Assembly: GCA_947493945.1 (NCBI GenBank)
Contig: CANLSR010000004.1
Coordinates: 138,748 to 202,747, forward strand
Source of the DNA: an uncultured bacterium
GTDB taxonomy: Bacteria; Bacteroidota; Rhodothermia; Rhodothermales; Rubricoccaceae
Direction: 5' to 3'
Length of the DNA: 64,000 nucleotides
The position numbers and the translations under genes are program-made. The notes beneath the pieces were generated by a model, which had not been told where the DNA came from, ran no database searches, and worked only from the letters and a program-made list of their open reading frames with translations. This document shows positions 5,014 through 56,063 of the stretch, piece after piece; position 1 is the first letter of the stretch; each line of letters begins with the position of its first letter.

Positions 5014-6621
5014 CTAGAAGGGCGCGTCGGTGGCCGGCGGCGGGAGGGGCGGCGGGCCGTCCGAGAACCCGTCGCCACCGGGCGGTAGTGGCGGCGCGCC
5101 CGGGCCGTCCAACGGCGGGTAGTCGTCGTAGCCGCCCGACGTGTCACTCTTGACGTAGCTCGTGAGGTTCTCGAAGCGGGCGTACTGGTTCACGAACGCC
5201 ACCTTGACGTCGCCGATCGGCCCGTTGCGCTGCTTCCCGATCAGGAGCTCGCCTAGGCCCTCGGTCGAGTTGCCGTTTTCGTCGACCGTGATCCCGTAGC
5301 GCTCGGCGCGGTAGATGAACATCACCACATCGGCGTCCTGCTCGATAGAGCCGGACTCACGCAGGTCGCTCAGCTGGGGCCGCTTGTCGCCGCCCCTCGT
5401 CTCGACAGCGCGAGACAACTGCGAGAGCGCGATCACCGGCACGTCGAGCTCCTTGGCGAGCCCCTTGAGCGACCGCGAGATCTGGGCGATCTCCTGCTCC
5501 CTATTGCCGCTCTGGGTGGCCGCCGTCCCGTGCATGAGCTGGAGGTAGTCCACGATCACCAGCCCGATGTCGTGCTCGGCCTTCAAGCGCCGGCACTTGG
5601 CGCGCAGCTCCAAGATGCCCAGCCCGGCCGTGTCGTCGATAAAGATGTTGGACGCCGACAAGCGGCCGGCGGCGCGCGCCAGCTTGGGCCAGTCGTCGTC
5701 GTGCAAGCGGCCGGTCCGGGCGCGCTGGGCGTCGACGCGGGCCTCGGACGTGAGCAGGCGCTGGGCCAGCTGCTGGGCGCTCATCTCGAGCGAGAAGTAG
5801 GCCACGCCCGCCGGTTTTTCCGGGTGCAGCGCCGCGTTCCGGGCGATGGCCAGGCTGAACGCGGTCTTGCCCATGGATGGCCTGGCGGCCACGATCACCA
5901 TGTCGGACGGCTGCCAGCCGCCGGTCATGGCGTCCAGCGCCGAGAAGCCGGACGGCACGCCCGTGATGCCGCCCTCGCGCCCGTGGATCGACTCCAGGTG
6001 CTGCATCGTCTGGTGCACCACGGAGTTCATGTCGACGGCGCCCTTGCGGAGCTGGGACTCCGAGATCTGGAAGATCTCGCGCTCGGCGTTGTCGAGCAGG
6101 TCGAAGGCGTCCGTCGTCGGGTCGAAGGCCTGGCCGACCACGCCGGTCATGGTCGTGATAAGCTTGCGGAGCAGGCTCTTCTCGGCAATGATGCGCGCGT
6201 GGTACTCGACGTTCGCGGCGCTGGCGACGTGCGTCGTCAGCTCGGTGAGGTAGTATCCGCCGATGGCGTCGTAGTCGCCGCGCCGCTTGAGCTCCTCGGT
6301 GAGCGTGATCAGGTCGACCGGGTTGCCGCGCTCGAAGAGGGCCTCCATCGCCTCGTAGACCCGTTGGTGCTTGGGGTCGTAGAAGGCGTCGGCGGGCAGG
6401 ATCTCGATGGCCTTCGGGATCGCCTCGCGCTCGATGAGCATGGCGCCCAGGACCGACTGCTCAACCTCGGTCGCCTGGGGCGGCATCCGGCCGGCCTGCT
6501 GCTGCATCGGCAGCACGTTGAGCGGGCGCCGCTTGGCGCCGGCCATCTTCTCCAAGGGCACGCCGGGCATGTCCTCGTCGATGCGGAGCGGCCGCTGCTG
6601 GAAGTCGTCGGGTTCAGCCAT
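5014..6621 (-). CDS. dnaB: replicative DNA helicase DnaB
   Basis: 535 aa. EVEQSVLGAMLIE N-domain, Walker A AARPSMGKTAF, IVDYLQLM, SQLSRAVE and RESGSIEQDADVV. The start is uncertain because the N-terminus has ~45 extra aa. The C-terminal tail is proline-rich. Confidence 0.95.
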   Translation of the reverse strand: MAEPDDFQQRPLRIDEDMPGVPLEKMAGAKRRPLNVLPMQQQAGRMPPQATEVEQSVLGAMLIEREAIPKAIEILPADAFYDPKHQRVYEAMEALFERGNPVDLITLTEELKRRGDYDAIGGYYLTELTTHVASAANVEYHARIIAEKSLLRKLITTMTGVVGQAFDPTTDAFDLLDNAEREIFQISESQLRKGAVDMNSVVHQTMQHLESIHGREGGITGVPSGFSALDAMTGGWQPSDMVIVAARPSMGKTAFSLAIARNAALHPEKPAGVAYFSLEMSAQQLAQRLLTSEARVDAQRARTGRLHDDDWPKLARAAGRLSASNIFIDDTAGLGILELRAKCRRLKAEHDIGLVIVDYLQLMHGTAATQSGNREQEIAQISRSLKGLAKELDVPVIALSQLSRAVETRGGDKRPQLSDLRESGSIEQDADVVMFIYRAERYGITVDENGNSTEGLGELLIGKQRNGPIGDVKVAFVNQYARFENLTSYVKSDTSGGYDDYPPLDGPGAPPLPPGGDGFSDGPPPLPPPATDAPF

Positions 6622-14069: not shown

Positions 14070-16565
14070 TCAGTAGAGGCCGACGGGGTCGACGTCGAGG
14101 TTGACGCGGTGGCCCGACGGCATCCGCACGCTGGCCTCGGCCGCCTCGACGACGGCCGCCAGGACGGACGCCGGCAGCGTGCGCGGGGCCTTGACGATGA
14201 TCTGGAACCGCCACCACTTTTTGATCCGCCCGATCAGCGCCGGGATCGGCCCCAGCACGTCGACGCCGGCCACCCTGCCCGCCTCGGTACGGAGCGCCGC
14301 GCCCCAGCGCTCGGCCAGCTGGCGGGTCGAGCCCTCGTGCGGTCCCTTGACCTCGACGCCGATCATCCGGCCGTACGGCGGGTAGCCCAGGGCCAGCCGC
14401 TCCGCGAGCTCGCCGACGGCGAAGCCGTGGAAGTCGTGCGCCAGGGCGTACTGGATGGCGGGGTGCTCCGGGTTGCGGGTCTGGAGCAGCACCTCGCCTT
14501 CGAGCTCGTGGCGCCCGGCGCGGCCGGCCACCTGGGCCAGCAGCTGGAACGTCCGCTCGGCGGCGCGGAAGTCGGGCAGCAGCATCCCGGTGTCGGCCTC
14601 GACCACGCCCACCAGCGTCACGCGCGGGAAGTCGAGGCCCTTGGCCACCATCTGGGTGCCCAAGAGGATGTCGGCGTCGCCTCGGCCGAAGGCGTCCAGG
14701 ATCTTGCGGTGGGCGCCCCGGCGCGAGGTGGTGTCGAGGTCCATCCGCAGCACGCGGGCCGTGGGGAACACCTCGGCGATCTCGTCCTCGACGCGCTGGG
14801 TGCCGGCGCCCAGCATCCTGAGGTCGTCGGCGCCGCAGTCGGGGCACGGGTGGGGCACGTGCTGCGCCCAGCCGCAGTAGTGGCACCGCATCCGCCCCCC
14901 GCCCGGGCCGCCCTTGTGGACGGTGAGCGTGACGGCGCAGTGGGGGCACGTCGGCGTCCAGCCGCAGTCCTCGCACGTCAGCACCGGCGCGAAGCCGCGG
15001 CGGTTTTGCAGCAAGATGGTCTGCTCGCCTTTCTGCAAACGGTCCTCCATGGCCAGCCGCAGCTCGTGGCTCAGCGCCCCCTTGAGCCGGCGCACCTTCT
15101 TCTCGCGCGCCAGGTCCAGCACGCGGACCGGCGGCAGCGGCGCCGGCTGGCGGAGCGTGCCGCCAGCGGCGCGGACGGGCACGCGCTCGGGCATCTCCAG
15201 CCGCGTGTACTTGCCGGCGTTGGCGTTGGCGACGGACTCCATCGACGGCGTGGCGCTGCCCAGCACGCACACGGCGCCGGCCCGGTGGGCGCGCATCACG
15301 GCCACGTCGCGGGCGTGGTAGCGCGGCGCCGGGTCGAACTGCTTGTAGCTCGCCTCGTGCTCCTCGTCGACCACGATGAGGCCGATGTTTTCGAGCGGCG
15401 CGAACACCGCCGAGCGCGGGCCGATGACGATGGGGTAGACGCCGTCGCGGATGCGGGTCCAGGCGTCGAGCCGCTCGCCGGCGCTCATGCGGCTGTGCAG
15501 GACCGCCACGCGGTCGCCAAAGTGGGACCGGAAGCGGCGGACGGTCTGGGGCGTGAGCGCGATCTCGGGGACGAGCACGATCGCCGTCCGCCCCAGCGCG
15601 AGGGTGGCGCGCAGGGCGCGGAGGTAGACCTCGGTCTTGCCCGAGCCGGTGACGCCGTGGAGCAGGAACGTCTCGGCCCGGCCGGCGCCGACGGCGTCCA
15701 CGACCGCTTCCAGCGCGCTGACCTGGGCCGGGTGCAAATCCAGGGCCGGCGCCGCGACCGCGACCTCGCCGTCGAGCCCGTCGGCGCGGCGCTCGACCTC
15801 GGCGTCGAACGCCTCCACGAGCCCGCGCGCTTGCAGGCTTTTGACCGTGCTGCTGGCGGCGCCGGTGGCCGAGAGCGCGTCGGCCTGGAGGACGCCGTCG
15901 GCGCCAGGCTGGCCGTCGCCGGCGGCGGCGAGGTACTCCAAAAGCGCCTGCTGCTTGGCGCCCCGGACCGGCTCGGCCTCGCCGGCGCGCTCCGCCAGCC
16001 GCAGGTGGCGGGCGGTCTTGGCACGCGCCCGCGCCTCTTGCACCTCGGCGTCGACGCGGAGCACGCCGGCGGCCTCCATCCGCCGCAACAGGTTCTGGGG
16101 CACCGTCTTGCGGCCGAGCACGTCGGCGATCTGGGCGACGGGGAGTCCGCTCCCGTTCTTCTCGGCGAGCGCGCGCAGGATCTTGCGCCCGCGCGGGTCG
16201 TCGGCCCAGGCGTCGGGCGGGGCGGTGGCGTGGACCACGCGGTGGCCCTCGACCTCGGTGCCGCTGGGCAGCGCCGCCTTGACGGCCTCGCCCCAGGCGC
16301 ACAGGTAGTAGTCGGCGGTCCACCGCGTCAGCGCCAGCAGCTCGGGCGTGAGCGCGGGCCGGGCGTCCAGGACGTCGTGGAGCGGCTTGAGCCCCTCGGC
16401 GCTCCCCTCGACCCGCTCGGCGACGACGCCGGTGATCTGGCGCCGCCCGAACGGGACCAGCACCCGGGCGCCGGCCACGGCCTCGGCCTCCATGCCCGCC
16501 GGCACGCGGTAGGTGTAGACGCCCGCGACGGACGTGAGCGGGACGACGTGGGCGAGCGCGGGCAT
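14070..16565 (-). CDS. priA: primosomal protein N' (replication restart helicase PriA)
   Basis: 831 aa. Walker A GVTGSGKTEVY, DEEH box, Cys-rich zinc region CEDCGWTPTCPHC...CHYCGW...CPDCG. Confidence 0.95.
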   Translation of the reverse strand: MPALAHVVPLTSVAGVYTYRVPAGMEAEAVAGARVLVPFGRRQITGVVAERVEGSAEGLKPLHDVLDARPALTPELLALTRWTADYYLCAWGEAVKAALPSGTEVEGHRVVHATAPPDAWADDPRGRKILRALAEKNGSGLPVAQIADVLGRKTVPQNLLRRMEAAGVLRVDAEVQEARARAKTARHLRLAERAGEAEPVRGAKQQALLEYLAAAGDGQPGADGVLQADALSATGAASSTVKSLQARGLVEAFDAEVERRADGLDGEVAVAAPALDLHPAQVSALEAVVDAVGAGRAETFLLHGVTGSGKTEVYLRALRATLALGRTAIVLVPEIALTPQTVRRFRSHFGDRVAVLHSRMSAGERLDAWTRIRDGVYPIVIGPRSAVFAPLENIGLIVVDEEHEASYKQFDPAPRYHARDVAVMRAHRAGAVCVLGSATPSMESVANANAGKYTRLEMPERVPVRAAGGTLRQPAPLPPVRVLDLAREKKVRRLKGALSHELRLAMEDRLQKGEQTILLQNRRGFAPVLTCEDCGWTPTCPHCAVTLTVHKGGPGGGRMRCHYCGWAQHVPHPCPDCGADDLRMLGAGTQRVEDEIAEVFPTARVLRMDLDTTSRRGAHRKILDAFGRGDADILLGTQMVAKGLDFPRVTLVGVVEADTGMLLPDFRAAERTFQLLAQVAGRAGRHELEGEVLLQTRNPEHPAIQYALAHDFHGFAVGELAERLALGYPPYGRMIGVEVKGPHEGSTRQLAERWGAALRTEAGRVAGVDVLGPIPALIGRIKKWWRFQIIVKAPRTLPASVLAAVVEAAEASVRMPSGHRVNLDVDPVGLY

Positions 16566-16609: not shown

Positions 16610-16638
16610 CCCGCTGGCGGGGCGCCTCCGCCAGCGGG
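16610..16638. repeat. REP family 1 (CCCGCTGGCGG-loop-CCGCCAGCGGG)
   Basis: 11-bp perfect stem, 15 nt downstream of the RAYT stop. Confidence 0.85.
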
Positions 16639-17297: not shown

Positions 17298-17322
17298 CGC
17301 TGGCGGACGGCGCCCGCCAGCG
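17298..17322. repeat. REP family 1
   Basis: CGCTGGCGGacggcgcCCGCCAGCG. It lies between the RAYT start and the stop of the next gene, whose stop codon follows immediately. Confidence 0.85.
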
Positions 17323-19434: not shown

Positions 19435-19459
19435 CCGCTGGCGGGGCGCGTCCGCCAGC
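19435..19459. repeat. REP family 1
   Basis: CCGCTGGCGGggcgcgtCCGCCAGC, intergenic. Confidence 0.8.
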
Positions 19460-19927: not shown

Positions 19928-19958
19928 TCGCGCTGGCGGACGCGCTCCGCCAGCGCGA
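19928..19958. repeat. REP family 1 (13-bp stem TCGCGCTGGCGGA / TCCGCCAGCGCGA, loop CGCGC)
   Basis: Perfect hairpin between the convergent small ORF and tkt. Confidence 0.9.
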
Positions 19959-28039: not shown

Positions 28040-28062
28040 GCTGGCGGAGGCCGTCCGCCAGC
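28040..28062. repeat. REP family 1 (loop GGCCG)
   Basis: GCTGGCGGAggccgTCCGCCAGC, 12 nt downstream of the nuoG stop within the nuoG-nuoH spacer. 22 nt are identical to the copy at 46850. Confidence 0.85.
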
Positions 28063-30468: not shown

Positions 30469-31860
<1,392 letters not shown>

Positions 31861-31864
31861 GGGT

Positions 31865-32527
31865 CTAGTGGGTTCGGATGCGGTGGAGCGGGGCCGGGGC
31901 GGCGGCCTGCTCCTGGTCAATAATGCGGTCGATCAATAGGTCCGCCAGCCGGACGGACTCGTCGAGCTGGACGCCCTCGTCCTCGGCGTCGGACAGCTCG
32001 CGGAGCGCCTGGTAGATCCACAGCCGCCGCCGCGTCGCGCGGTAGCTGGAGACCATCGTGGCCGCCATGCTCGCCGCTAGCGCGAGGCCGAGCCCGATGT
32101 CGAGCCCGGCCGACCACGTTAGTGGGTCGCCCAGGTGCGTGAGGACCTTGCTCCAGACCAAGGCAAGGTAGAACGACCCGACGAGCCCGACGAGCCACGG
32201 GCGCTTGCGGAGCTGGCGCTCCATCTTGGCCGTCTCGCGGTCGATGAAGGCCACGTCCAACGTCTTGAACAGCTTGTGCCGCTCTTGGTAGGAGATCCAG
32301 GACTTGCCGCCCTTGTGCATCCGCTCGAGTTCTTTGAGCAGGACCGCCTTGACCCGCCGTTCGCGGCGCGTGAGCCCGCTGCCGGTCGGCGCGCTCGCCC
32401 CGCTAGCTGGCGCTGTCCCTAGCGGGGTGGCGGACGGGGTCAGGCGGGACGAGAGCGGGCCGCGCACGTCCAGCGCCTGGGCGTCTCGGATGCGGCGGTC
32501 GGCCACGGTGCGGAGGGGGGCGGCCAT
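31865..32527 (-). CDS. hypothetical 2-TM protein, paralog 1, embedded in the nuo operon
   Basis: 220 aa. It shares an N-terminal ADRRIR..LDVRGP motif, an LT..ERRV helix, two TM segments and a C-terminal IYQALREL..LIDR with the gene immediately upstream. TGATG overlap with that gene, and a 4-nt gap to nuoF. Confidence 0.6.
   Translation of the reverse strand: MAAPLRTVADRRIRDAQALDVRGPLSSRLTPSATPLGTAPASGASAPTGSGLTRRERRVKAVLLKELERMHKGGKSWISYQERHKLFKTLDVAFIDRETAKMERQLRKRPWLVGLVGSFYLALVWSKVLTHLGDPLTWSAGLDIGLGLALAASMAATMVSSYRATRRRLWIYQALRELSDAEDEGVQLDESVRLADLLIDRIIDQEQAAAPAPLHRIRTH
32398..32436. repeat. palindromic element family 2 (CCCCGCTAG-loop-CTAGCGGGG + TGGCGGACG), intragenic
   Basis: 39 nt, the exact reverse complement of 33210-33248. 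Read in frame as ATPLGTAPASG in paralog 1. Confidence 0.9.
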
Positions 32528-33372
32528 CAGCTCCGTACCCGCTGGCGGCGGCCGGCGACGGGCGTGGCGCCGACCTCGTCAGGGGCGACGCCAGCTAGCC
32601 GGTCGATAAGCCGGTCGGCCTGCTGGAGGGCGCCGGAGACCGGCGCGTCGTCCACGAGCAGCGCCAGCTCGCGCAAGGCGCGGTAGATGGCCAGCCGTTG
32701 CGGCCCAGCCGGCGTTCCGACCCGGCGCGAGGCCAGCGAGACGGCCGCCACGACGGCGAGGACGAGGAAGAGGCCCGTCTCGAACAGGGGCTTGCCCGTC
32801 GCGAGCGCCAGCGGGAAGGCGGCCCCGAGTGCGAGCGCCAGCGCTACCCAGCGGGCGCCCTTGAACGACGGACGAGCCTCCATCTTGGCGATCTCGCCGT
32901 CGACAAACGAGAGGTCGAGGGTCGCCAGGCGCTTTTTCTCGGCGTAGCTCAACCCGTCGCTCACGCCGTCGCGGGCGTTGTCGATGGCGAGCGTGTCGAG
33001 CAGGATCCGGTGGACGCGGCGCTCGTCGGCGGTCAGCCCGGAGAGCGTGGCCGGCGGCTCGGGGGGGGCAGGCCGAGGCTTCCGCGTCGGCCACGGCGCG
33101 GCGTCGAATGGCTTGACCACGCGCGGCGCCGCCTTCGACCGGCTAGCGGTTGGCGCCGGCGTGGTGTCGGGGGCCGCCGTCTCGTACAGGTCGGCCGTCT
33201 CGCCCGGCTCGTCCGCCACCCCGCTAGGGACAGCGCCAGCTAGCGGGGCGGGCGGCACCGCGATGCCGGCCCGGCCCAACGCCTGCGACACCGGCCCGCG
33301 CACGTCGAGGCCCGGCGCCGCCCGGAGGGAGGCGGCGCGGATCCTGCGGTCGGCGGCCAGGCGGCTGCTCAT
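32527..33372 (-). CDS. hypothetical 2-TM protein, paralog 2, embedded in the nuo operon
   Basis: 281 aa with the same architecture as paralog 1 plus a Pro-rich insert. It starts 22 nt after the nuoE stop. Confidence 0.6.
   Translation of the reverse strand: MSSRLAADRRIRAASLRAAPGLDVRGPVSQALGRAGIAVPPAPLAGAVPSGVADEPGETADLYETAAPDTTPAPTASRSKAAPRVVKPFDAAPWPTRKPRPAPPEPPATLSGLTADERRVHRILLDTLAIDNARDGVSDGLSYAEKKRLATLDLSFVDGEIAKMEARPSFKGARWVALALALGAAFPLALATGKPLFETGLFLVLAVVAAVSLASRRVGTPAGPQRLAIYRALRELALLVDDAPVSGALQQADRLIDRLAGVAPDEVGATPVAGRRQRVRS
33210..33248. repeat. palindromic element family 2, intragenic, opposite orientation
   Basis: CGTCCGCCA + CCCCGCTAGGGACAGCGCCAGCTAGCGGGG. Read in frame as PLAGAVPSGVAD in paralog 2. 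Confidence 0.9.
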
Positions 33373-33394: not shown

Positions 33395-34087
33395 CTAGTG
33401 GATGGTGTCCGAGACCGGCGGCGTCTGGTACGTCTCTACCGCTTGGGCGTCGGTGCGGCGGTTGCCGCCCATCTCGTCCCCGTCCTGGGGCAGCGTCACG
33501 CTCTCGAACGGGAGCTCGGCCCCCTGGCGGAGCGCGTCCACCAGCTGGTCGATCTTGGCCTCGGTCAGGTTGTGGACGTAGGGGCCGTTCGTGACCTGCA
33601 GCATCGGCGCCGAGCCGCACGCGCCCAGGCACTCGGCCTCCTGGACCGTGAACAGGCCGTCCTCGGACGTGCCGCCCTTGACCACGCCCAGCTTGTCCTC
33701 CAGGTAGTGCAGCATGTCGTAGCCGCCGCAGACCTGGCACGAGAAGCACGTGCAGACGTCGAACACAAACGTCCCCTTCTCCTCCTTGAAGTACTGCGTG
33801 TAGAACGTGGCCACGCCGTAGACCTTGGCGTAGGGGACGCCCAGCGTGTCGGCGACCAAGTGCATGGTCTCGGGTGGCAGCCAGCCCCACTTGCGCTGGG
33901 CCAGCCACAGCGTCTTCATCACTGCCCCGTCGGGCGTCGGGTACTGGGCGCGGAAGGTCTCGATCTGGGCCGCCTCCTCGTCGGTCCAGACCAACTCGGC
34001 GTCCGGGATCACGCGCGGGGGCGCCTGGCCGGGCACGTACTGCGGCTGGGGCGAGACGGAGGGGCCGGGGGTGTCGGGAGTCATCAT
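33395..34087 (-). CDS. nuoE: NADH-quinone oxidoreductase subunit E
   Basis: 230 aa. GVATFYTQY, DVCTCFSCQVCG, ECLGACGSAPM (2Fe-2S ligands). Confidence 0.9.
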   Translation of the reverse strand: MMTPDTPGPSVSPQPQYVPGQAPPRVIPDAELVWTDEEAAQIETFRAQYPTPDGAVMKTLWLAQRKWGWLPPETMHLVADTLGVPYAKVYGVATFYTQYFKEEKGTFVFDVCTCFSCQVCGGYDMLHYLEDKLGVVKGGTSEDGLFTVQEAECLGACGSAPMLQVTNGPYVHNLTEAKIDQLVDALRQGAELPFESVTLPQDGDEMGGNRRTDAQAVETYQTPPVSDTIH

Positions 34088-35661: not shown

Positions 35662-36468
35662 CTAGTCGTCGGCGTCGGTGCTCAGGTCCTTCGGGATCTG
35701 GCCATGAGCGCGCGGGAACGGGTCGGGCTGGAGCTCGCCGTCGGGGTGGTTGGGCGGCAGCGGGAGCGAGCCGGGGATGCCCAGCGTGGGGAATTCCTTC
35801 CGGGCCGGGTGGTACTCGAAGTCCTCTGGCATGTAGATCCGGCGCATGTCGGGGTGGCCACTAAAGCGGATGCCCATCATGTCCCAGGCCTCGCGCTCGT
35901 GCCAGTTGGCCCCCTTCCAGACGCCGGTGACCGTCGGCACGACCGGGTCCTCCTCGTCGACGAGCACCTTGAGGCGGATCCGCTTGCGGGCCTTGAGCGC
36001 GCACACGTTGTAGAACACCTCGAACCGGTCCTCCTCGGTAAAGCGGTCGACGGTCCCGATGTCGGTCAAGTAGTCGAACCCGACCTCGTCGCGCAGGAAC
36101 AGGCACACGTCGGCGATGGCCCCCTTCTCGACAAACACCGTCGTCTCGCCGGCGTAGCCGACGACGTCGGTGACCGCGTCGGCGAACCGGTCTTGGAGCG
36201 CGGCGATCACCTTGGGCACCTGCCAGGTGGCCTTGGCGTGCGGGTTCTCGTTCTGGAGCCGCTCCATCTCGCCCGCCAGCGCGGCGCGCGGCGTAAAGTG
36301 GAACTTGAGCGTCTGGGCCTGCTCGGCCGGGTCCACGAACGGCGCGTCGTCCGGGCCGCCGACGAGGGCGCCGGCGACGGGCGCGAGCGCGACGGTCGGG
36401 GGCGGCGTCGGCTCCGGCTGGCGGTCGGCGTCGCCGGCGGCGAGGTCGGGGTCGGGGGTCTCAGGCAT
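35662..36468 (-). CDS. nuoC: NADH-quinone oxidoreductase subunit C
   Basis: 268 aa. WHEREAWDMMGIRFSGHPDMRRI signature. The N-terminus of ~50 aa is Pro/Ala-rich. Confidence 0.9.
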   Translation of the reverse strand: MPETPDPDLAAGDADRQPEPTPPPTVALAPVAGALVGGPDDAPFVDPAEQAQTLKFHFTPRAALAGEMERLQNENPHAKATWQVPKVIAALQDRFADAVTDVVGYAGETTVFVEKGAIADVCLFLRDEVGFDYLTDIGTVDRFTEEDRFEVFYNVCALKARKRIRLKVLVDEEDPVVPTVTGVWKGANWHEREAWDMMGIRFSGHPDMRRIYMPEDFEYHPARKEFPTLGIPGSLPLPPNHPDGELQPDPFPRAHGQIPKDLSTDADD

Positions 36469-38906: not shown

Positions 38907-38930
38907 CGCTGGCGGACGCGCTCCGCCAGC
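38907..38930. repeat. REP family 1 (loop CGCGC)
   Basis: CGCTGGCGGAcgcgcTCCGCCAGC, 18 nt downstream of the purB stop. The core is identical to the copies at 19931 and 54791. Confidence 0.85.
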
Positions 38931-38947: not shown

Positions 38948-40291
38948 TCAGCCCAGCCCGACGCGCTCAAAGATCTCGTCCACGTGCGCCTGGTGCGTGG
39001 CCGGGTCGAAGGCGTCGGCGATCTGGTCGGCCGAGAGCACGTCGGTGATGGCCGGCGCGGCCCCGACGATGTCGCGGAACGAGCGGCGCTCACTCCAGGC
39101 CCGCATCGCCAGCGGCTGGACGGCGTCGTAGGCGGCCTCGCGGCTGTGCCCGGCGTCGATCATCGCCAGCAGCAGGCGCTGGCTGTAGACGAGCCCGTAG
39201 GTGCGGTCCAGGTTCTCCAGCATCCGGTCGGGGTAGACCGTCAGGTTTTCGACGATCCGCGCCATCCGCGCCAGCGCGTAATCCAGGACGATGGTCGCGT
39301 CGGGCAGGATCACGCGCTCGACTGACGAGTGGCTGATGTCGCGCTCGTGCCACAGCGCCACGTCCTCGTAGGCGGCCACCATGTAGCCGCGCAGGAGCCT
39401 GGCCATGCCGGTCAGGTTCTCGCTGCCGATCGGGTTCCGCTTGTGCGGCATCGCGCTCGACCCCTTCTGGCCCTTGCCGAACGACTCCTCGGCCTCCAGG
39501 ACCTCGCTCCGCTGCAAGTGGCGGATCTCGACGGCGATGGTCTCGATGGTGGTCCCGACCAACGCGAGCGCCCCGAGGTACTGGGCGTGCAGGTCGCGCG
39601 GGAGCACCTGGGTCGAGATCGGGGCCGGGCGCAGGCCCAGCCGCTCGCACGTCAGCCGTTCGACCTCGGGCGGGATGTTGGCGAACGTGCCGACGGCGCC
39701 CGACAGCTTGCCCACGCGGACGGCCTCCGCGGCGGCGTCGAACCGCTCGATGTCGCGCTGGACGGCGTCGTAGAACCGGGCCAGCTTGAGCCCGAACGTC
39801 GTCGGCTCGGCGTGGACGCCGTGCGTCCGCCCGACGGTCACGGTGTGCTTGTGCTCCACGGCCCGCTGGCGGAGCACGTCCGCCAGCCGGACGAGGCCGG
39901 CGCGCAGGATCTGGTTGGCCTCCTTGAGCCGGACGGAGCCGGCCGTGTCTACCACGTCCGACGAGGTCAGCCCGTAGTGGACCCACTTGCGCTCCGGCCC
40001 CAGCGTCTCGGAGACGGCGCGCGTGAACGCGACCACGTCGTGACGCGTCTCGGCCTCGATCTCGTGGATCCGGTCGACGTCGAAGCCGGCGTCGGCGTAC
40101 AACGTCTCCACGTCCGCCATCGGGATCTGGCCGGTCGCTTGGGACCACGCCCAGCAGGCGGCGAGCTCGACGTCGAGCCAGGCCTGGTACTGGGCCTCCT
40201 CGGTCCAGATGGCGCCCATCTCGGGGCGGGTGTAGCGGTCGATCATGGCGGCGGCGGCGGTGGGGAGACCGCTAAAGTCGGGGACGGGCAT
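38948..40291 (-). CDS. purB: adenylosuccinate lyase
   Basis: 447 aa. [10 protein letters not shown] and the signature [11 protein letters not shown]. The conserved N-terminus [10 protein letters not shown] starts at 40246, so the first 15 codons may not be translated. Confidence 0.95.
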
Positions 40292-45058: not shown

Positions 45059-45171
45059 CAGAGTGAGGGCACGTCCCGTACGGCCAGCTCCCTTCGAACC
45101 CCGCCAGGGCCTGACGGCAGCAACGGTAGAAGGTCGACGCGGCGCGATACGGATCGCGTGCCCTCACTCTG
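45059..45171 (+). ncRNA. ffs: candidate small (4.5S-type) SRP RNA
   Basis: 113-nt long hairpin closed by a perfect 15-bp stem (45059-45073 / 45157-45171). The exactly central apical hairpin GCC-UGAC-GGC is flanked by 5' CAGG and 3' AGCA, as in SRP domain IV (E. coli CAGG UCC GGAA GGA AGCA). An A/C-rich 5' asymmetric loop (GAACC) lies below. The tetraloop is not GNRA. Confidence 0.45.
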
Positions 45172-50630: not shown

Positions 50631-51251
50631 ATGTCCCGTCTCGTTCTCATCGCCCTCATGACCCTCGTCGCCTGCGCCGAGCCCCCGACCGGTCCGCCCG
50701 GCCCGCTGGCGGAGGCTCCCGCCGTGCCGGCCGATTCCGTCGGCGCGATGCCGACGGGCCGGCCGGAGGCGGTCCGGGACACGATCCAGGTCGAGGGCAT
50801 GGACCAAGCCGTGACGCTCCGCCTAGTCTCGTTCCCCGACGTCCCGCTGCCGTTCTCGACCTACGTCCGGGAAGGGTGGCGGAGCGGCACGGTGGCGTCG
50901 GGGGAGGGGACGGCCGTGCGCCTGACGACGGGCGAGCCGCCGCGGCAGGGGCTGGTGAGCCTGTTCGTCCCCGCCGATGCTGCGTCCGAGGCCGAGGTGG
51001 CCGAACTCGCCCAGGCCTCCGCCGAGTCCTACGGCGGCGCTCGGGAGCGGGACGCCGCCGAGACGTGGGCGCGCCGGTCGTGGACGTTCCAGGACGGCGA
51101 CACGGTCGGGTCGGTCCGCCTGGGCGAGCACGCCGGGACGTTCTTCTACGTCCTGGAGGCGTACCCCATCGACATGGGCGACGGGTTCGCGCCCGCAGCC
51201 CGCGTGGCGCTGGACCGCCTTTGGTGGCTGGACGACGGGACAGCGCTCTAG
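50631..51251 (+). CDS. hypothetical lipoprotein
   Basis: MSRLVLIALMTLVAC lipobox and GC3-rich frame. The alternative ATG is at 50607. Confidence 0.55.
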   Translation: MSRLVLIALMTLVACAEPPTGPPGPLAEAPAVPADSVGAMPTGRPEAVRDTIQVEGMDQAVTLRLVSFPDVPLPFSTYVREGWRSGTVASGEGTAVRLTTGEPPRQGLVSLFVPADAASEAEVAELAQASAESYGGARERDAAETWARRSWTFQDGDTVGSVRLGEHAGTFFYVLEAYPIDMGDGFAPAARVALDRLWWLDDGTAL

Positions 51252-54790: not shown

Positions 54791-54815
54791 CGCTGGCGGA
54801 CGCGCTCCGCCAGCG
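54791..54815. repeat. REP family 1 (loop CGCGC)
   Basis: CGCTGGCGGAcgcgcTCCGCCAGCG in the ACAD-hydrolase spacer. 25 nt are identical to 19931-19955. Confidence 0.9.
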
Positions 54816-54830: not shown

Positions 54831-56063
54831 TCAGCGGTAGCGCTTGAGCTCCTGGCGCGCCACGACGCCCTTGTGGACCTCGTCCGGCCCGTCGTAGATG
54901 CGGGCGGCACGCTCGTGGCGGAACCAGAAGGCGAGCGGCGTGTCGTCGAGCACGCCCAGCCCGCCCAGCGCCTGGACGGCGCGGTCCAGGACGCGGCCCA
55001 GCGTGCCGGCGACGGTAAACTTGATGGCGCTCACCCCGGCGCGCGCCGCACGCGCGCCGTCGCGCTCGATGGCCTGGGCCGTGTCGAGGACGTAGAGCCG
55101 GGCCGCGTCGGTCTCGGCGCGGCTCTCGGCGATCCAGAACCGAACCGCCTGCTGCTCGGCGAGCGCCCGCCCCGGCGCGATCTCACGCGCGAGTGCTCGG
55201 CGGCACATGAGGTCGATGGCGCGCTCGCAGACGCCGATCCAGCGCATGCAGTGGTGGATCCGGCCCGGCCCGAGCCGCTCCTGGGCCAGCTGGAACCCGC
55301 CGCCGCGCGGTCCCAGCAGGTTCCCTTCGGGAACGCGCACGCCGTTCAGGCGGATCTCCGAGTGCGACAGCCAGCCGGCGCCCTCGTCGCCCATCACCGG
55401 CAGCCGGCGGACGTGCTCGACGCCGTCCGCGCCGGTGGGCACCAGGACCATCGAGGCGCGCTTGTAGACGCTGGCCTCGGGGTCGGTGACGGCCATGACC
55501 ACCATCCAGTCGGCGCCGTCGAAGCCGGTCGTAAACCACTTGTGGCCGTCGAGCACCCACTCGCCCGCCCCGCTGGCACCCTCCGCCACCCCGCCAGGGA
55601 CAGCGCCAGCTAGCCGGGCGGTCGTGGACATGACGGTCGGGTTGGAGCCGGCGTGCTCGGGCTCGGTCATGGCAAAGCACGACCGCGCCGCCCCGTCCAA
55701 CACGGGCTGCAAAAACTGGCCGCGCTGCGCGTCCGTGGCGTGCGCCAAGAGCAGCTCCATGTTGCCGATGTCGGGCGCCTGACCGTTCGTGGCCCAGTGG
55801 CCGAGCGGGCTCCACCCCAACGCCTCCGACACGCGCCCGAACTCGGGCAGCGGCAGGCCGGCCCCGCCGTGGTCGGCGTGGAGCGCCAGGTTCCACAGCC
55901 CGTCGGCCCGGGCCTTGTCCCGCACCTCGTCCATCGCCTCCGCCAGCGCGGCGTAGTCGTGGTTCAGCAGCAGCGGTTCGAGCGGCACGCACTCGTCGGC
56001 GACAAACTGGCGGACGCGGTCGAGCAAGGCGTCGAGGTCGGGGGCGGGCGGGGCGGCAGTCAC
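54831..56063 (-). CDS. acyl-CoA dehydrogenase, ACAD10/11-like subfamily, with repeat-derived insertion
   Basis: 410 aa. [23 protein letters not shown] and [11 protein letters not shown]. The loop between them carries the extra segment [18 protein letters not shown], encoded by the family-2 element. Confidence 0.9.
55581..55618. repeat. palindromic element family 2, diverged copy inside the ACAD gene
   Basis: CTCCGCCA + CCCCGCCAGGGACAGCGCCAGCTAGCCGGG. Two stem mismatches relative to 33219-33248. Preceded by a decayed REP-like CGCTGGCacccTCCGCCA. Confidence 0.8.

Follow-up and report, generated by a model that had tools for sequence, protein, structure and literature searches.

Why do two adjacent genes within a complex I operon carry the same stretch of DNA, in frame and in opposite orientations? 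This question is raised by a 64,000-nt stretch of an uncultured Rubricoccaceae bacterium (Bacteroidota, Rhodothermales; assembly GCA_947493945.1, contig CANLSR010000004.1, positions 138,748 to 202,747; hereafter the window, GC 70–76%), in which an earlier reading of the letters alone, here called the original prediction, had described a 39-nt palindromic element in two tandem paralogous genes. Homologs likewise place it among Rubrivirga-like Rubricoccaceae. Comparison with orthologous DNA in relatives shows that one 24-nt sequence, the cassette, has been inserted repeatedly and in a fixed orientation at a single bond of a single motif, the empty counterparts in relatives being exact.

The inverted repeat and the unit within it

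The repeat that had been described is present: positions 32398–32436 are the exact reverse complement of 33210–33248, and the exact match reaches 2 nt further, to 41 nt, with 98% complementarity between the two copies across 45 nt. Its 30-nt core was found three times, against none expected from 100 dinucleotide shuffles, the third match lying at 55589–55618 with 2 mismatches. The three matches fall in the following genes.

31865–32527, minus strand: short paralog gene (220 amino acids, no Pfam family), host of copy A
32527–33372, minus strand: long paralog gene (281 amino acids, no Pfam family), host of copy B and of an old C-terminal copy
54831–56063, minus strand: acyl-CoA dehydrogenase (ACAD) gene, host of copy C

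In both paralogs, which are 36% identical (E = 4e-16), the repeat is read in frame on the minus strand and encodes the claimed peptides ..ATPLGTAPASG.. and ..PLAGAVPSGVAD... It is also correct, for the variant found in the window, that each orientation has a single TAG-free frame and that both copies use it. The energy of the hairpin formed by the repeat was ordinary compared with shuffled sequence (z about −0.15, in DNA of 72% GC); since it was no better than the shuffles, we dropped structure as a defining feature.

We defined the boundaries of the inserted unit by comparing filled with empty orthologous sites at the DNA level, which gave a cassette of 24 nt, AGCTGGCGCTGTCCCT(G/A)GCGGGGT, with the consensus AGCTGGCGCTGTCCCTGGCGGGGT. 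The insertion point always lies between GCT and GGCGG of the octamer GCTGGCGG (GCT^GGCGG(A)), except for one insert in ribBA described below, and all copies to which a junction could be assigned have one and the same orientation relative to this asymmetric motif. There is no target duplication beyond a possible 1-nt ambiguity. The target, split by the insert, accounts for the rest of the 39–45 nt common to copies A and B, and its extended form, CGCCCCGCTGGCGG, is a repeat in its own right. Because the two paralogs carry the motif on opposite strands, their cassettes have opposite orientations. The original prediction had placed the two copies at equivalent, homologous positions after the conserved DVRGP motif. 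Both inserts do follow the start of this motif shortly, by 14 or 23 residues, and are roughly equivalent in that respect, but the codons are not homologous: the sites are PLAD codons with the octamer on the sense strand in one gene and SAS codons with the octamer antisense in the other.

Nor is the inserted unit a palindrome. On its own, the cassette has no terminal inverted repeats, internal stem or self-complementary arms, and the perfect 9-bp stem combines 7 nt of target flank (CCCCGCT, on the left) with a derived G-to-A change, so that on this alignment it is incidental. The variable position is G (CCCTGGCGGGG) in the ACAD copy, in a copy from a metagenome-assembled genome (MAG) and in most older copies, and the orthologous linker copy of locus L122 has GAC there (L and P numbers label the loci and proteins that we fetched from relatives). 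An A occurs in copies A and B of the window, where it creates a second CTAG, and also in the old copy of L127; the change may be recurrent.

The length of 24 nt corresponds to 8 codons, and the reading frame is therefore kept. TAG occurs in two of the six frames of the cassette (four of six in the window's variant), and the canonical copies keep to the pair of frames that is open in every case, one of which reads TP(P/L)GTAPA. Both ends of the cassette resemble the target motif, as do parts such as GCTGGCG and TGGCGG. The usual left flank can pair with the 3′ part of the cassette; no local flank offers a template for the internal CTGTCC.

Filled and empty sites in Rubricoccaceae

We scanned all fetched Rubricoccaceae loci, about 220 kb, for copies. 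According to our controls, chance should produce no cassette match at 4 mismatches or below, and a match with 5 is borderline on its own. Presence and absence of the cassette between relatives was found at no fewer than seven independent sites. The window holds 4 copies in 64 kb, all of them genic, and no copy was seen outside called genes across the 220 kb.

32405–32428, plus strand: copy A, the cassette AGCTGGCGCTGTCCCTAGCGGGGT in the short paralog, antisense reading TPLGTAPA; lacking in L125 and L124
32396–32436, plus strand: copy A together with the two parts of its target, CGCCCCGCT before and GGCGGACG after the cassette; these 41 nt make up the element first described
33218–33241, minus strand: copy B, which is the same cassette, located in the long paralog's linker and translated (L)AGAVPSGV(A)
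32573–32596, minus strand: old copy with 5 mismatches in the long paralog, at the C-terminal site IDRLA^D; it encodes GVAPDEVG
55588–55611, minus strand: copy C, the consensus cassette (G variant) in the ACAD gene, read (L)AGAVPGGV(A)
50705–50713, plus strand: empty target GGCCCGCT^GGCGGAGGCT in a lipoprotein gene (about 50631–51251); the ortholog of the closest relative is filled
36417–36424, plus strand: nuoC, N-terminal tail, with the empty target CCGGCT^GGCGGTCG; the intact motif is also found in L122
46800–46818, plus strand: ribBA, C-terminus (HDRQAL), empty; here 24 nt with a related core are inserted in the closest relative

The flanks of copy A are the ancestral 14-mer CGCCCCGCTGGCGG that is present in the empty ortholog of L125. 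At this site the codons are ACC GCC AGC GGG GCG in L125, GCC GCC AGC GCG in L124 and TCC GCC [24 nt] AGC GGG GCG in the window. In the linker of the long paralog, the window and L122 carry the 24 nt between CT and GGCG, and the site is empty in L124 (CCA CTG GCG GGC), L125 (CCA CTG GCG GAG) and L126 (CCC GCC CCG CTG GCG GAA). In L123 the same site reads CCG CTA GCG GCA GAC. Except for one synonymous change, this is a filled site from which 21 nt are missing, and it may be what is left of a cassette after partial deletion, as opposed to a site that had never received one. Copy A probably derives from copy B by copying, or was homogenised with it: the two share the derived base and lie about 800 bp apart in inverted orientation.

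At the C-terminal site of the long paralog, L122, L125 and L126 are empty (RLADAD; CGG CTG GCG GAC), and L127, L128 and L123 carry related inserts. We accepted 32573–32596 as a copy despite its 5 mismatches because this ortholog pattern supports it.

The ACAD gene offers an especially direct comparison of the two states. The window reads GCC CGG CT[A GCT GGC GCT GTC CCT GGC GGG GT]G GCG GAG, and the 93%-identical ortholog (P0001, in L003), which is missing 8 residues at this place, reads GCC CGG CT^G GCG GAG. An exact 19-mer scan of 185,579 species genomes returned one further copy, in a Rubricoccaceae MAG, where it closely follows the lipobox cysteine of a phosphodiesterase and is identical to copy C at 24/24 nt. 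This site is filled in L001 and L132 (99% identical) and empty in L131; an empty ortholog of the form x-L-(A/V)-E had been predicted beforehand, and the 83%-identical ortholog indeed reads CGA CTG GTG GAG, with no insert. Altogether, four copies in unrelated genes match at 23–24 of 24 positions. The 24/24 identity across genes and species suggests either constraint on the sequence or recent transfer.

Three further sites are empty in the window and filled in relatives. The lipoprotein copy of the closest relative (L003 15453–15476, PPAGAVPGGTVD) has 3 mismatches. The nuoC gene of L126 has two tandem, diverged cassettes at exactly the site that corresponds to 36417 in the window; these units are read in the R-Q frame, from which TAG is absent in their variant. 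The RibBA insert (L003 17535–17558) is read APAGDGAA and has a core, GCGCCGTCCCCTGCGGGG, in common with the L126 variant. Among the indels of at least 6 nt between the window and its closest relative (∼37 kb at 87–90% identity), three of the five largest belong to the cassette family, the ribBA insert being one of the three. The two genomes share the linker copy, and each also has private copies, which means that gain or loss went on after they split.

These comparisons decide several points that the original prediction had left open. The element-free alleles that it had sought were found for both paralogs, and the peptide is an insertion rather than ancestral sequence, given that orthologs of both paralogs, of the ACAD and of the phosphodiesterase lack exactly 24 nt (8 codons). 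The possibility that the two copies are the only ones is contradicted by the further copies. Of the two origins that had been offered, independent insertion at a preferred target is supported by the fixed site GCT^GGCGG and the empty orthologs, whereas hairpin-mediated inversion after gene duplication is excluded by the age of the duplication and by the empty state of the orthologs of either paralog.

Several candidate matches were discarded. A 19-mer match in Nocardioides (L002) is due to chance, with unrelated flanks. A metagenome scan with GCTGGCGCTGTCCCTRGCGG gave 116 matches, all of them unrelated stretches coding for LALSLA (CTG GCG CTG TCC CTG GCG) with other flanks, and scans of viral contigs returned nothing, or chance matches in DNA of 42% GC. 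A 33-nt insert in nuoE of L122 (∼9071, equivalent to 33524 in the window), beside CCGCCAGC, is only vaguely similar and in the wrong orientation, and was not counted.

The target octamer

No octamer is more frequent in the window than GCTGGCGG, the motif that receives the cassette: its 138 sites in 64 kb amount to ∼1 per 460 bp. Longer forms are repeated as well: the 9-mer GCTGGCGGA occurs 51 times (2.2 expected) and the 14-mer CGCCCCGCTGGCGG 11 times. Simple arithmetic on site counts places the octamer above a rough estimate from codon usage. Within genes it is mostly read x-L-A-x (47 sites), antisense x-R-Q-x (25) or antisense A-S (11), and about 31% of its sites lie outside our crude gene calls, in intergenic or uncalled DNA. 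In this one 64-kb window, the two strands carry 59 (plus) and 79 (minus) sites, which is no clear polarity. Its density is 1.2–1.7 per kb in most related loci and lower in the contig to which L004 and L123 belong.

At nine places in the window the octamer also forms a perfect hairpin (GCTGGCGG-N6/7-CCGCCAGC), in several cases just downstream of a gene.

15146–15167, 16613–16635, 17299–17321, 19437–19459, 19932–19954, 28040–28062, 38908–38930, 39865–39887 and 54792–54814: octamer hairpins
54792–54814: of these, a hairpin GCTGGCGG-N7-CCGCCAGC just 3′ of the ACAD gene

They are probably the first palindromic element of the original prediction, which had counted the repeat in the paralogs as the second. 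Candidate roles of the octamer, considered by analogy, could be those of a Chi-like site, an uptake-like sequence, or the stem of a repetitive extragenic palindromic (REP) sequence or terminator. Neisseria uptake sequences often form inverted pairs at gene ends, and the octamer resembles them in this arrangement. It is one base from E. coli Chi, GCTGGTGG, and both are over-represented; unlike Chi, it occurs here at a far higher density and without clear strand polarity in the window. A preprint includes the octamer itself among candidate Chi variants of some Proteobacteria (bioRxiv 10.1101/2020.08.13.249359).

Comparison with known repeat families

The original prediction had likened the repeat to the Rickettsia palindromic elements (RPEs), and apart from in-frame reading the defining features of these elements fail here. 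Like RPE-1 and the shorter RPE-4 and RPE-6, the cassette lies in frame in unrelated genes, adds an extra peptide that is tolerated, and is variably present among relatives. RPE-1 is about 100–150 bp long and forms its own hairpin, whereas the cassette has only 24 nt and no hairpin of its own. The cassette also differs in its strict target motif and in its host, a free-living member of the Rubricoccaceae with 72% GC, and it has no sequence relationship to RPEs, although this is stated without an alignment to an RPE consensus.

REP sequences are closer in size. They measure 20–40 bp, and some families are intragenic and in frame, adding short peptides (Di Nocera et al. 2013, PMC3733652). The GTAG-23 REPs of Thermomicrobium roseum sit within a small palindromic target of hundreds of copies, and several REP families have no known transposase (PMC3733652). 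Compared with the GTAG- and CGTC/TGTC-tagged super-families, the 24-nt cassette is within the size range, dispersed and non-coding in origin, and it shares the in-frame reading with the intragenic members and the insertion into an abundant small target with the GTAG-23 family. Unlike these super-families, it is not self-complementary, the stem of 8–9 bp plus loop being absent from the unit. As to the tag, TGTC (canonical) or CGTC (L126 and the old copy of the window) is present in an internal position and not at an end, and GTAG is absent altogether. Furthermore, REPs are high-copy and mostly extragenic, downstream of genes, whereas the cassette has a low copy number and every copy seen is genic. 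The Rhodothermales host (Bacteroidota) and the asymmetric octamer target cut at a fixed bond set it apart as well. From MITEs (miniature transposable elements with inverted repeats; 70–300 bp) the cassette differs in its length of 24 nt, its lack of terminal inverted repeats and the absence of target duplication beyond the 1-nt ambiguity. It is therefore related in kind to the intragenic REP and RPE repeats, yet outside the definitions of RPE, classical REP and MITE, and is distinguished by a structureless 24-nt unit, a strict site in the commonest octamer and a Bacteroidota host.

How the cassette may spread

We tentatively favour, with a probability of about 45%, the view that the cassette is a non-autonomous, REP- or RPE-like mini-insertion that is mobilised in trans by a sequence-specific activity, a route that has also been proposed for REPs. 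An enzyme encoded elsewhere, a nuclease or transposase, would cut within the octamer, the cassette would be placed at the cut site, and selection would clear all copies except the harmless in-frame ones. We favour placement in trans because the junction is invariant, the copies are identical across species and REPs provide a precedent for the use of an abundant small target.

Several observations weigh against such mobilisation. No gene for a transposase or a REP-associated tyrosine transposase (RAYT) is found among the called genes of the window. The cassette has neither terminal repeats nor its own hairpin, and its ends look like the target. Copies are very few in relation to the available targets, with only one other exact 19-mer copy in the 185,579 species genomes, and no intergenic copy was seen even though ∼31% of the motif sites lie outside called genes. 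The partial form in L123 (CTA GCG GCA) is not expected from clean excision, and the junction of the ribBA insert with the motif differs from that of every other copy.

The most serious rival, which is distinctly possible though we would not expect it to be right, requires no dedicated enzyme. The cassette would spread passively by way of the hyper-abundant motif that flanks it: single-stranded DNA (ssDNA) fragments, originating in the same genome or in relatives whose DNA has been taken up, or a nascent strand would anneal by 8–9 nt of microhomology on each side (CGCCCCGCT / GGCGGAC), and the 24 nt would then be incorporated by patch repair or template switching. The far commoner empty motifs may erase copies likewise. 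Such copying fits the motif-like ends of the cassette and the shared flanks, which are the consensus of the extended motif, as well as the small number of copies, their patchy occurrence among relatives, the exact empty sites and the partial form in L123. It also fits the absence of a transposase gene nearby, as far as the window's called genes go. Copy A, identical to copy B and inverted at a distance of 800 bp, has a geometry that suits template switching, and the mosaic long paralog of the relatives indicates that recombination is active at this locus. Yet the intergenic motif hairpins, as the closest match to the donor flanks, should receive the cassette most readily, and none of them is filled; identical 24-mers in different species would require recent transfer; and events of this kind, such as short-patch illegitimate recombination in Acinetobacter, are extremely rare. 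The lack of copies outside genes is in fact explained neither by placement in trans nor by passive copying. One possibility is that selection keeps the hairpins intact.

A more far-reaching version of placement at a fixed bond, which we consider rather unlikely, would make the cassette the smallest target-specific mobile DNA so far, structureless and written into one bond of a Chi-like octamer by a site-specific activity, be it a nuclease or recombinase in trans or an RNA- or ssDNA-templated insertion. If this were true, the extreme abundance of the octamer and the cassette would be two faces of one system.

Other origins conflict with the data. Each insert could have arisen locally and independently, by slippage, tandem duplication or snap-back synthesis, with the similarity among copies being convergent. 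The motif-like parts of the cassette (GCTGGCG, TGGCGG), the complementarity of its 3′ part to the usual left flank and the tandem doublet in L126 speak for such events. However, CTGTCC is untemplated and the flanks differ, and still the four copies in unrelated genes match at 23–24 of 24 positions, which contradicts a local origin. We give very little credence to a footprint left by the excision of an IS5-family insertion sequence (IS) flanked by CTAG. The window's variant does contain CTAG...CTAG, and CTAG-flanked IS5-like elements with ends GGCTCTGTC.. are found in L003 and L124. The empty sites GCT^GGCGG, however, have no CTAG or TA to duplicate, the ancestral cassette has a single CTAG, and the same 24 nt at more than 6 sites would need identical imprecise excisions. 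The least credible account is an ancestral peptide, or an element older than the gene duplication with a later hairpin-mediated inversion of one copy: both copies do lie shortly after the same conserved N-terminal motif, but orthologs of both paralogs lack the 24 nt, the paralogs are just 36% identical with both types found across the Rubricoccaceae, the asymmetric flanks are inverted along with the core (impossible for a stem-mediated loop flip), and the same DNA is found in unrelated genes.

Two further ideas were rejected. An invertible 773-nt segment between the arms was dismissed by reasoning alone, as its inversion would put antisense sequence in both genes. An adaptor or assembly artefact is contradicted by the occurrence of the cassette in several assemblies, the respected reading frames and the lineage-specific substitutions.

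If this reading of the cassette is right, a repeat far smaller than a MITE and without a hairpin can act like a targeted insertion, and would keep supplying 8-residue indels to housekeeping proteins, in their linkers and loops, the hosts here being complex I subunits, an acyl-CoA dehydrogenase, lipoproteins and RibBA. It also offers a testable system, in which the 24-mer and the cut site are defined and natural targets number in the thousands. The system bears on the question whether short intragenic repeats spread by a dedicated enzyme or by microhomology-driven patch repair, which equally concerns the Rickettsia elements and the REP families without a transposase, and it marks GCTGGCGG as a motif that deserves functional study in Rhodothermales.

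Host genes and their surroundings

All host sites fall in linkers, in N- or C-terminal tails that the Pfam domain does not cover, in lipoprotein tethers or in a surface loop, and the inserts are predicted to add 8 amino acids to flexible parts of unrelated proteins. In the two paralogs, both insertion sites are in a disordered, Pro/Ala-rich linker whose length is highly variable in about 100 homologs. In the ACAD, the Pfam middle domain is stretched relative to the profile, and solved homologs are gapped at the same place. The AlphaFold model of this protein has a mean predicted local distance difference test (pLDDT) score of 81 and places the insert in a loop (residues 152–167) between the strands 148–151 and 168–177, with pLDDT < 50 at residues 158–165.

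The paralog pair sits between nuoE (33395–34087) and nuoF (30469–31920) of the complex I operon. Both proteins have an N-terminal ADRRIR..DVRGP stretch, the variable Pro/Ala linker, a GLTxxERRV motif and hydrophobic segments. The tandem pair is kept across the Rubricoccaceae (window 31865–33372; L124 9132–10636; L126 10001–11508; L127 2603–4107) and was found only there in our homolog search; its products could be lineage-specific accessory proteins of complex I. The short paralog is wholly absent from L122 and L123.

The C-terminal half of the long paralog (32527–32800 in the window, compared with P0123, P0150 and P0151) occurs in two types, ..LLVDDAPVS.. and ..LLADPDDVTSDAL.., the distribution of which disagrees with the relatedness of the neighbouring genes. 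Identity between the window and its closest relative is 62% in the long paralog and 93% in the ACAD. This pattern points to recombination at the long-paralog locus.

Relatives have a Uma2-family gene (PF05685) between nuoE and the long paralog, which the window lacks; the stretches that bear it are L122 9234–10882, L123 9387–10891, L124 8365–9135 and L127 1977–2606. IS5-family elements (DUF4096 plus DDE_Tnp_1_2) lie at 6313–7232 in L003 and at about 13325–14160 in L124, and are absent from the corresponding places of the window. No tRNA genes were found in the window, and the sole Rfam match there is a small signal recognition particle (SRP) RNA of the Bacteroidales type (RF04183, 96.6 bits) at 45060–45167 on the plus strand.

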